DNA from: Roseomonas sp.
GTDB lineage: Bacteria; Pseudomonadota; Alphaproteobacteria; Acetobacterales; Acetobacteraceae
Direction: 5' to 3'
Assembly: GCA_044341625.1 (NCBI GenBank)
Contig: JBIIRI010000001.1
Span: forward strand, 6,325 to 70,324
DNA: 64,000 nt
The notes under the pieces were generated by a model. That model made no database searches, had not been told where the DNA came from, and was given only the letters and a program-made list of their open reading frames with translations. The position numbers and the translations under genes were made by a program. Positions 20,986 through 63,535 of this stretch are shown here, piece by piece. How positions within the stretch are numbered: the stretch's first letter is position 1; each line of letters begins with the position of its first letter.

Positions 20986-21408
20986 GGCGCCGGGTGGCCT
21001 GTAAGCCGGGTTCTGTCCACGCCCTAGGGATGAACCCGGGGCGCTGTGCGACCATTCCTCTGGACCCTGCGTTGCCGCAGGGTTCTCGCGGCCAACCCGG
21101 GCGACGGGGCGAGAATGCCCCTGCGTCCACGCGCCTTTCGGCACGCTTCGCCGGCCGCCCCTATTCGGCCTTGCTCCCGGTGGGGTTTGCCATGCCGCCC
21201 CCGTCGCCGGGGGCGCGGTGGGCTCTTGCCCCACCCTTTCACCCTTACCGCGGGGTGTTTCCACGCCGTGGCGGTCTGCTCTCTGTGGCACTTTCCCTGG
21301 GGTTTGACCCCCGCCGGTCGTTGACCGGCACCGTATTCCCGTGGAGCCCGGACTTTCCTCCAGCCGCGTGTCGCCACGCTGCCAGCGGTCGCCCAGCCAC
21401 CCGACGCC
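20986..21408 (-). ncRNA. rnpB: RNase P RNA (bacterial type A)
   Basis: GAGGAAAGTCCGGGCTCC, GGGAAAGTGCCACAGA and ACAGAACCCGGCTTA; P1 helix GGCGTCGGGTGGC/GCCACCCGGCGCC. Confidence 0.97.
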
Positions 21409-39989: not shown

Positions 39990-40122
39990 TCCCGTTTTCC
40001 CCCGTCCCTGGCCGCCGCATGTTGCGATGAGCCCGCACGGCGCGCCAGCCATGCCGCCGACGCCGCGCAAACCCCAATGCAGTGTCTTGATCCTGCCACA
40101 TGATCGCATGAGAGTGTCAGGC

Positions 40123-40929
40123 ATGCGCGCATTGGTCGGCATTTCCTGCTGCAACAAGGCCTTCGGGCTGTTCGCCACGCCGAACCACGCGGCGTCCGAC
40201 AGCTACGTTCGCGTCACGCTCGGCCCGGTGGGCGGCGTGCCCGTGCTGCTGCCCGCGGCCGGCGCTGAACTGGCGGCGGACATCCTGCCCCGACTTGATG
40301 GGCTGATCCTCACCGGCAGCCGGTCCAATGTGCATCCCGGCCATTATGACGGCCCCGCCCATGCCGAAGGCACGCCTGAAGACCCGCAGCGCGACGCGAC
40401 GACCCTGCCGCTGATTCGCGCCGCCATCGCGGCGGGGCTGCCGGTTCTGGCGATCTGCCGGGGGTTCCAGGAACTGAACGTCGCCCTTGGCGGCTCGCTG
40501 GACCAGCGTATCCAGGACCTGCCGGGCCGAATGGACCACTCGACGCCGAGCGACCAGAAGCTGCCGAAGGTGCGGATCGGCAAGGCGCATGCGGTGCGTG
40601 TCGCGCCCGATGGCGTGCTGGCCCGCATCTGGGGCGCCGCCGCGCTGCCCTGGCGGGCCGAGGCGGTGGCGGTGAACTCCCTCCACAACCAGGGCATCCA
40701 GAACCTGGCCCCGCGACTGGTGGCGGAGGCCTGGGCGCCCGACGGCACGATCGAGGCCGTGCGCGTGCCGGACGCGCCGGGCTTCGTGCTCGGCGTGCAA
40801 TGGCACCCCGAATATGACTGGGAAACCGACCCGCTGAGCCGCGCCCTGTTCGAGGCCTTCGGGATCGCGGCGGCGGAATGGTCCGCGCGCCGCCACGGCG
40901 CGCCATCCCCGCGACTTGTCGCGGCGTGA
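40123..40929 (+). CDS. gamma-glutamyl-gamma-aminobutyrate hydrolase family (PuuD-like, class I GATase)
   Basis: LTGSRSN, AICRGFQELN, NSLHNQ, VQWHPE. Confidence 0.88.
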   Translation: MRALVGISCCNKAFGLFATPNHAASDSYVRVTLGPVGGVPVLLPAAGAELAADILPRLDGLILTGSRSNVHPGHYDGPAHAEGTPEDPQRDATTLPLIRAAIAAGLPVLAICRGFQELNVALGGSLDQRIQDLPGRMDHSTPSDQKLPKVRIGKAHAVRVAPDGVLARIWGAAALPWRAEAVAVNSLHNQGIQNLAPRLVAEAWAPDGTIEAVRVPDAPGFVLGVQWHPEYDWETDPLSRALFEAFGIAAAEWSARRHGAPSPRLVAA

Positions 40930-41056
40930 GACATTTCGCTCACGGAGAGGCGATTTCTTTCAACTGGCCGCGATCATTCCGCCAAATCGCGGAATTCATG
41001 GCCGCGCACGCATTCGCCTTTTGCATCCGCGACGGCGAACACGCTAAGCTCCACCT

Positions 41057-41168
41057 TGCCGGCCGACTATAGCCGGTGAGCGATCCGGTTCCCCTGCCGG
41101 CTCGCCCGACCATTCCGATCGGAAAATCAAAAGTAGCGCCCGGTCACCCCCCTGGCCGGGCGTTTTTT
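41057..41168 (+). ncRNA. Candidate trans-acting small RNA
   Basis: TTGCAT-N18-TAAGCT promoter upstream, hairpin with a C-rich loop, A-rich linker, intrinsic terminator; ends approximate. Confidence 0.5.
41136..41168 (+). terminator. Rho-independent terminator
   Basis: GCGCCCGGTCA-CCCCCC-TGGCCGGGCGT followed by TTTTT. Confidence 0.85.
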
Positions 41169-41289
41169 GTTGCTCGGCTCTTTTTCGCCCAGCGCAAGAC
41201 ACTGACGAGATGGAAAGTCCCGGTCACGATCTTGCGCGGGCCCATCCACAGGGTATGACAGCAACGCTTCCAGGTTGGGGAACCAGAAA

Positions 41290-41976
41290 ATGTCCGAATT
41301 CGTCATCGCGCCGCCCAAGGTGGCCTACCTGCCCGTCAAGGGCGGCGGCAAGTTTCCGGTGCGCCGCATCTTCTGCGTCGGCCGCAACTACGCCGAGCAC
41401 GCGATCGAGATGGGCTCCGACCCGACGCGCGAGCCGCCCTTCTACTTCGCGAAGCCGGCGGACAGCCTGGTGATCGACGGCGCCGACATGCCCTATCCGG
41501 TCGCCAGCAAGAACCTGCACCATGAGATGGAGCTGGTGGTTGCCATCGGCACCGGCGGCGCGAACATCGCCCAGGCGGATGCGCTGAAGCATGTGTGGGG
41601 TTGGTGCGCCGGCCTCGATATGACGCGCCGCGACCTGCAGAACGAAGCGAAGAAGACCGGCCGCCCGTGGGACATGGGCAAGGGCTTCGACCATTCCGCG
41701 CCGATGGGCCTGCTGGTGAAGCATGACGGGTCCTATGACGGCTCGAAGGGCAAGATCGAGCTCAAGGTCAACGGCGTGGTGAAGCAGGTCTCCGACCTGT
41801 CCAAGCTGATCTGGTCGGTGCCCGAGGTGATCGCGAATCTCTCCGGCCTCGTGCGGCTGGAGCCGGGCGACCTGATCATGACCGGCACGCCCGAGGGCGT
41901 CGCGGCCGTGGTGAAGGGCGATGTCCTCGAAGGCTTCGTCGAGGGCGTGGGCGAGATCCGCACCAAGATCGTCTGA
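41290..41976 (+). CDS. Fumarylacetoacetate hydrolase family (fumarylpyruvate hydrolase-like)
   Basis: [34 protein letters not shown]. Confidence 0.92.

Positions 41977-63459: not shown

Positions 63460-63535
<76 letters not shown>

Follow-up and report, generated by a model that had tools for sequence, protein, structure and literature searches.

Organization of the locus

The window, by which we mean the whole 64,000-nt stretch of DNA that was analysed, comes from a genome that is a Falsiroseomonas (Acetobacteraceae) as judged from its named relatives. In it, a 360-nt gap flanked by a Peptidase_C26 (PuuD-like) gene and a gene of the fumarylacetoacetate-hydrolase (FAH) family contains a predicted sRNA gene, together with several promoter-like and terminator-like elements. 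The features of the locus, in order of position, are the following:

40123-40929: PuuD-like gene (Peptidase_C26, Pfam E = 8e-66)
40936-40953, + strand: weak terminator-like hairpin just 3' of the PuuD-like stop codon (40929), 5 pairs followed by TTTCTTTC
40996-41020, + strand: conserved box upstream of the -35 hexamer, TTCATGGCCGCGCACGCATTCGCCT, a possible regulator site or UP-like element
41021-41026, + strand: putative -35 hexamer TTGCAT (consensus cTTTTGC.t across 68 loci)
41044-41050, + strand: putative -10 element CTAAGCT (CTANNNT type), at the 17-nt spacing favoured by the family alignment
41057-41170, + strand: predicted sRNA of about 114 nt, its 5' end placed from the promoter and its 3' end from the U tract
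41058-41077, + strand: hairpin H1, GCCGGC/GCCGGU with loop CGACUAUA (41058-41063 pairs with 41072-41077)
41081-41104, + strand: hairpin H2, its C-rich loop UUCCCCUG (41089-41096) invariant and the first putative seed
41113-41124, + strand: hairpin H3, UUCC-GAUC-GGAA
41125-41134, + strand: A-rich single-stranded linker, variable in length and sequence, a candidate Hfq-binding stretch
41135-41170, + strand: intrinsic terminator with a 12-bp stem, loop CCCCCC within CACCCCCCUG (second putative seed) and a T6 tail
41232-41259, + strand: separate promoter-like element of the FAH gene, TTGCGC (41232-41237)-N16-TATGAC (41254-41259)
41272-41284, + strand: ribosome-binding region of the FAH gene, AGGUUGGGGAACC, complementary to the H2 loop GGUUCCCCUGCC, candidate local target
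41290-41976: FAH family gene (Pfam E = 1e-52)

Other small features were noted around the PuuD-like gene. The gene itself appears leaderless (40083-40125), with no Shine-Dalgarno (SD) sequence; in most genera its ATG (40123) is preceded, at about 31 nt, by a conserved CTTGAT (40086-40091). Between its stop codon and the sRNA promoter there is a perfect 7-bp inverted repeat, ATTCCGC-CAAATC-GCGGAAT (40976-40995), at the position of which other genera carry different small hairpins. Only two Rfam matches at gathering level were obtained in the window:

20986-21404, - strand: bacterial RNase P RNA class A (257.5 bits)
63463-63535, - strand: tRNA (70.4 bits)

For the predicted sRNA, in agreement with the sequence-only reading of the locus, which had recognised no known family or riboswitch, Rfam 15 returned no family at gathering score in the window, in a 501-nt region or in 19 distant homologue loci, none of its riboswitch families was matched in the window, the 501-nt region or the homologue loci, and six further loci had no match at E up to 0.01 either.

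A strongly folded RNA with four hairpins

The RNA spanning 41056-41172 (117 nt) folds into four hairpins at -54.7 kcal/mol, while its shuffles reach -37.6 +/- 3.4 kcal/mol (z = -5.0) and none of the 200 folds equally well; the covariance model search (cmsearch) matched the locus at 41056-41171 with 129.7 bits. Much of this layout had already been described in the sequence-only reading, and the hairpin GTGAG/CGAT/CCGG-UUCCCCUG-CCGG/CUCGC with its C-rich loop (41077-41106), the A-rich stretch (41121-41136) and the strong terminator with a C6 loop (stem-loop at 41135-41164, 12 pairs, followed by a T tract) were all located; what that reading lacked were H1 and H3.

The four hairpins differ in how they vary. 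The sequence of H1 is variable and its pairing is preserved, with changes on both sides in all six pairs of the family alignment. The apical stem of H2 is also predicted by RNAalifold. In H3, both-side changes occur in three of four pairs of the family alignment, and one locus (L007) shows a compensatory C-G to G-C change; the alternative pairing CCGA/UCGG, proposed for H3 by RNAfold and RNAalifold, was rejected, since the L007 variant breaks it and keeps UUCC/GGAA through the compensatory change. The linker columns are variable, with indels of 1-6 nt. Eight of the 12 terminator pairs are G-C, and the three apical ones covary.

Conservation and covariation

Within the genus, 24 other genomes were searched and 23 of them carry the element at 83-94% identity, in alignments that start near 41058 and stop near the U tract. 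The 28 distinct Falsiroseomonas sequences share a nearly unchanging 40-nt core and vary in H1, the linker and the flanks. A covariance model built from the Falsiroseomonas sequences (R1) was used for the conservation search in Acetobacteraceae that the sequence-only reading had called for, and it detected exactly one copy per positive genome, in 63 of 301 genomes and 30 of 143 genera.

When 68 members were aligned to the model, 97.3% of the cells held standard pairs, 18 of the 30 pairs showed changes on both sides, and the main covariation measures were reached by none of 500 shuffles; sliding the pairing partners by 1-3 columns lowered the paired cells to 32-49%. RNAalifold recovered the identical four hairpins from this alignment, with compensatory changes in 16 of 26 pairs. 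This alignment, being fitted to the model, leans towards its structure; the covariations of H1 and the terminator are plain in the raw sequences too. G-U pairs are abundant (for instance UG in 45 rows and GU in 48 rows), which identifies the + strand as the transcribed one, because frequent G-U pairs fit only this strand.

Over 100 members, the H2 loop almost always reads U(U)CCCCU(G/A) and the terminator loop ACCCCCCU(G/A); nothing else in the family is as invariant as these two C-rich loops. A U tail, defined as at least 5 T in 8 nt, is present in 79 of the 100 members. The sequence of the terminator stem is more conserved than its folding would require, for which a simple seed logic offers no explanation. 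From the fold and the covariation, we consider it almost certain that this strongly structured non-coding sRNA gene with four hairpins specifies a real structured RNA.

Promoter and probable transcriptional independence

Upstream of the RNA, a promoter consensus a.tcgccTTTTGC.t-N17-gCTAnnnT is conserved across genera. The sequence-only reading had proposed TTGCAT-N18-TAAGCT, and both hexamers lie where it placed them (TAAGCT at 41045-41050); the family alignment shifts the -10 element to CTAAGCT and shortens the spacer to 17 nt. The strict pattern TTGCNN-N16-18-CTANNNT was found in 42 of the 68 loci, as against 18 of 5000 control windows (0.36%), and in 39 of these 42 pattern-positive loci the last T of the -10 element sits 4-5 nt before the model start, a fixed distance that puts the predicted transcription start at the base of H1, near 41057. 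A simple scan of the gap for E. coli-type promoters found nothing, as is to be expected of alphaproteobacterial promoters of the CTTG...CTANNNT type. The motifs CATGGCYGC and GCA(A/T)TCGCC recur across genera at the position of the upstream box; a sigma-54 reading of CATGGCYGC was discarded on inspection, as the spacing does not fit.

The second promoter-like element, TTGCGC-N16-TATGAC, assigned earlier to the FAH gene, was also confirmed in place, and the motif to which it belongs, CTT(G/C)CG, about 16-17 nt, (G)CTAT(G/C), is seen by eye upstream of FAH in most Acetobacteraceae loci, some 30-45 nt before the FAH start; a regular expression for this motif matched 1 of 46 loci, so that its recurrence is a matter of reading by eye. 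Small hairpins after the PuuD-like stop are likewise seen by eye in other genera. Together, the sRNA promoter, the FAH promoter-like element and the hairpin at the PuuD-like stop favor three separate units, namely the PuuD-like gene, the sRNA and FAH-xth. The stand-alone unit suggested by the sequence-only reading is supported by a promoter at fixed distance, the frequent U tail and the FAH element, and judging from these signals the sRNA is probably transcribed independently as a discrete transcript, from its own promoter to its own terminator.

Phylogenetic distribution

A second covariance model, R2, was applied to a class-wide sample of 401 genomes from 308 genera, and gave one match per positive genome, in 61 genomes and 47 genera. 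The best 19 matches outside Acetobacteraceae (42-69 bits) align to the model over its full length, and the four-hairpin layout is seen in each of the six alignments displayed. Pattern scans of named genomes, combined with cmsearch, placed the RNA in Roseomonas-like genera, Elioraea, Belnapia, Siccirubricoccus, Dankookia, Roseicella, Caldovatus and Humitalea; in Magnetospirillum, Paramagnetospirillum, Phaeospirillum and Telmatospirillum; and in Azospirillum halopraeferens, Pelagibius and Kiloniellaceae, and Stellaceae. Weak matches were obtained in Haematospirillum (28.5 bits) and Skermanella (24.2 bits).

Several loci depart from the common layout. Among L090, L093, L097, L155 and L161, some have H3 replaced by a hairpin with a third C-rich loop (CAUUCC-CCCCCAA-GGAAUG) and some also have an additional unpaired CCCCCC, so that the number of C-rich sites rises to three or four. 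An uncultured Rhodospirillaceae MAG (L179) has, downstream of the RNA, at least two head-to-tail repeats of the terminator module with its 3' flank, which may be a genuine tandem duplication or an artefact of assembly. A Sphingomonadales MAG (L280) and a MAG labelled Rhizobium sp. Q54 (L260) carry a different RNA of about 110 nt and similar style, with loop CUCCCCU in its 5' hairpin and AAUCCCCCCUC in its terminator loop; it is matched weakly by R2 (24-26 bits) and matches nothing in Rfam at E up to 0.01.

Alphaproteobacterial sRNAs outside Rhizobiales, Rhodobacterales and Caulobacter are barely charted; for Magnetospirillum gryphiswaldense, an Rfam-based transcriptome analysis yielded a single sRNA (PMC9549626). 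A single-copy, covariation-backed RNA without an Rfam model, common to Roseomonas-like Acetobacteraceae, magnetospirilla, Azospirillum relatives and marine Kiloniellaceae, is of interest in this context: the alignments and the models R1 and R2 could seed a new RNA family, and the duplicated putative CCCCUG seed is a concrete, testable handle on post-transcriptional control in the carrier groups.

Proposed mode of action and candidate targets

We lean towards a trans-acting sRNA of the Hfq type, with its own promoter and terminator and two redundant anti-SD-like CCCCUG loops. On this model, transcription would begin at a housekeeping-type alphaproteobacterial promoter, TTGCAT-N17-CTAAGCT, and end at the strong intrinsic terminator. 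H2 and the terminator both present an identical, invariant single-stranded CCCCUG (in UUCCCCUG and CACCCCCCUG). Hfq, for which the window's own genome has a gene (PF17209, 110.1 bits), would bind the U tail and the A-rich linker, and either C-rich loop could then pair, in the translation-initiation regions of several mRNAs, with G-rich, SD-like stretches (CAGGGG, GGGGAA), blocking ribosome binding and usually destabilising the message; the two loops would serve as redundant seeds. Pairing with SD sequences as the actual mode of action has, in our estimate from analogy with better-known sRNAs, somewhat better than an even chance.

Close to the sRNA, the ribosome-binding region of the FAH gene is predicted to form a duplex with the H2 loop at -21.2 kcal/mol, ranking second against 1220 start regions. 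Only six FAH loci, all of Falsiroseomonas, retain GGGGAACC or a sequence close to it (GGGGAAACC in L011), and the FAH sites of other genera are of the GGAG type; the complementarity to the H2 loop does not extend beyond this genus. On sequence grounds, the neighbouring FAH-family gene is a plausible direct target in Falsiroseomonas and the best local candidate. The ribosome-binding region of the PuuD-like gene was considered as well and rejected, as it has no conserved G-run and the gene looks leaderless.

On the scale of the genome, the -20..-4 regions of 1220 confident starts contain GGGG in 11% and CAGGGG in 1.2% of cases. Duplex scans that included the stems gave inflated energies, and the version reported here uses the loops alone; over the 1220 starts its mean duplex energy was -11.4, whereas reversed loops gave -10.3 and coding-region windows -11.0. 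No obvious functional theme links the top candidates, as judged from their sequences, and a scan of the window's own genome with 8-mer seeds was uninformative. Given the small shift against the controls and the mixed top list, we do not take the genome-wide scan as evidence for targets.

Gene neighbourhood and alternative readings

The gene order around the RNA is remarkably stable. Of the 68 Acetobacteraceae loci, 62 have the PuuD-like gene upstream in the same orientation, at a distance of about 70-300 nt, and in 53 a FAH and/or Exo_endo_phos (xth-like) gene follows on the same strand; beyond this family, the same holds for FAH and/or xth-like in 28 of 35 loci, and the PuuD-like gene is not adjacent to the RNA in 30 of the 35. 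Some Magnetospirillum-like genomes combine a poor U tract (for example CCCCUGUUUC) with an xth-like gene that begins only 28-66 nt past the stem, and in a Falsiroseomonas sub-clade a gene of the arginase family (Pfam E = 1e-80) starts about 25 nt after a degraded tail. This co-orientation and closeness to FAH-xth in most lineages, which had escaped the sequence-only reading, keeps a cis-acting role in play as a minority rival: the RNA would be a 5' leader or attenuator of FAH-xth, with the RNA's promoter driving the downstream genes and its terminator being read through on a ligand, protein or temperature signal. The stable order and the xth-like and arginase starts near poor tails make read-through or a leader role possible in some lineages. 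For the family as a whole we find this explanation unlikely, although it is the strongest of the alternatives, given that a promoter-like element, read by eye, precedes FAH in most Acetobacteraceae loci, that the U tail is strong in most members, and that the downstream gene changes between lineages (FAH, xth-like or arginase family), being in one case on the opposite strand. Moreover, the terminator stem and loop are the best-conserved part of the RNA, the opposite of what is seen in a riboswitch expression platform, inspection revealed no conserved antiterminator pairing, and the riboswitch families of Rfam 15 gave no match. The fixed place upstream of FAH-xth nonetheless poses the question of cis element versus trans sRNA, as suhB/MmgR once did.

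The sub-clade with an arginase-family neighbour deserves separate mention. The gene (agmatinase or guanidinobutyrase-like) is found next to the RNA in L014, L015, L016, L017, L012, L038 and L042, where the U tail is degraded to CUUUGCGUU or CUUCGCGUU, and it is followed by dnaN in at least six loci of these clades (L021, L024, L030, L031, L037 and L046). In these species the RNA may be the 5' leader of that gene.

A broader variant of the cis reading, to which we give a low probability, is that of an ancient regulatory module tied to FAH-xth in several alphaproteobacterial orders, for which base-pairing as an sRNA would be no part, or only one part, of the function. On this view a factor, be it protein or G-rich RNA, would recognise the two CCCCUG loops and the sequence-conserved terminator, and it would set termination versus read-through, coupling a metabolic signal to a DNA-repair nuclease. 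If true, it would represent a new class of attenuator or protein-binding RNA.

It is somewhat less probable still that the RNA is a decoy, the two identical CCCCUG loops titrating a dimeric RNA-binding protein instead of pairing with mRNAs. Two invariant loops sharing one motif on a conserved scaffold, the weak genome-wide pairing signal and a terminator stem conserved beyond folding needs would all suit such a role. However, we know of no bacterial protein that binds C-rich loops in this manner, and CsrA, Hfq and ProQ prefer other motifs. There are also only two sites, compared with the many of known sponges, and in related bacteria C-rich loops are a proven base-pairing seed (PMC4615179).

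Since the PuuD-like gene is so often found upstream and its own terminator-like hairpin is weak, with 5 pairs, the element could also be the 3' UTR or terminator of that gene, or an sRNA processed from its mRNA, without a promoter of its own. We hold this to be very improbable in view of the conserved promoter at fixed distance and of the persistence of the RNA at the many loci outside Acetobacteraceae that lack an adjacent PuuD-like gene; four covarying hairpins and invariant loops would, moreover, be superfluous for a plain terminator. Finally, a small protein, such as that of the 60-codon GTG frame at 41076-41258, can be practically dismissed: open frames are expected on both strands at 70% G+C and are found there, but indels of 1, 2 and 4 nt between the conserved blocks break every frame and so exclude a conserved one, substitutions track base-pairing and not codons, and the GTG frame crosses the terminator into non-conserved sequence.

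Comparison with known sRNA families

The trans-acting sRNA reading places the Falsiroseomonas RNA beside several described families. Its best sub-threshold match in Rfam is ar14 (RF02344), which scores 24.4 bits (E = 0.014 on 501 nt) where the gathering cut-off is 58.8, and the C-loop hairpin, middle hairpin and C-loop terminator of ar14 align with H2, H3 and the terminator. The cuckoo / alpha-r14 family, reported in Rhizobiales and Rhodobacterales, is defined by two to four hairpins each with CCUCCUCCC and is often multi-copy (PMC4615179); its members include NfeR1 of Sinorhizobium and CcsR1-4 of Rhodobacter. Through redundant anti-SD loops, cuckoo/NfeR1 and AbcR sRNAs silence many mRNAs, cuckoo acting at the ribosome-binding site (10.1101/2025.11.14.688489). 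Like cuckoo, the present RNA is alphaproteobacterial, falls within the range of about 70-150 nt, repeats a C-rich anti-SD-like loop motif and is built of adjacent hairpins of which the last is the terminator, its four hairpins fitting the modular two to four of that family. Unlike cuckoo, its motif is CCCCUG and not CCUCCUCCC, present in two of the four hairpins (H1 and H3 have no C-rich loop), it is single-copy in each genome, and it is spread over Acetobacteraceae and Rhodospirillales-like families. As the features that define ar14/cuckoo are lacking, we do not regard it as a member, though on paper it would work alike.

AbcR1 and AbcR2 (alpha-r15) are Hfq-dependent, have anti-SD-like seeds and control large metabolic and transport regulons (10.1101/2025.11.14.688489; PMC7486931), and the abcR promoters carry the VtlR box GCAT-N3-TG-N3-T (PMC7486931). 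The VtlR/LsrB box has no match in the promoter of the Falsiroseomonas sRNA, which reads GCATTCGCCTTTT; this RNA further differs from AbcR, to which it has no Rfam match, in being single, whereas the AbcR genes are in tandem.

A different kind of parallel is offered by MmgR/SuhB (alpha-r8), which was first taken for a cis element because of its fixed gene neighbour and was later shown to be a trans-acting sRNA. Single copy, strong microsynteny and the ambiguity between cis and trans, here with respect to FAH-xth, are common to both, but the neighbours and the loop motif differ, and the Rfam suhB model is absent among the nine matches listed at E up to 10.

In motif chemistry, the closest analogy is with RsaE/RoxS of Firmicutes, in which several unpaired CCCC regions pair with the G-rich SD sequences of central-metabolism mRNAs. 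The likeness concerns the working mode only, since that RNA belongs to an unrelated phylum and has no sequence or covariance-model similarity to ours. Among published sequences, none of the motifs of the family was found in the sRNA sequences in the main text of a paper on A. brasilense Sp245, a full-text literature search for the core sequences gave nothing relevant, and the family appeared in no paper found. The RNA family is new to Rfam, and its kind, that of the sRNAs with anti-SD loops, is one already known.
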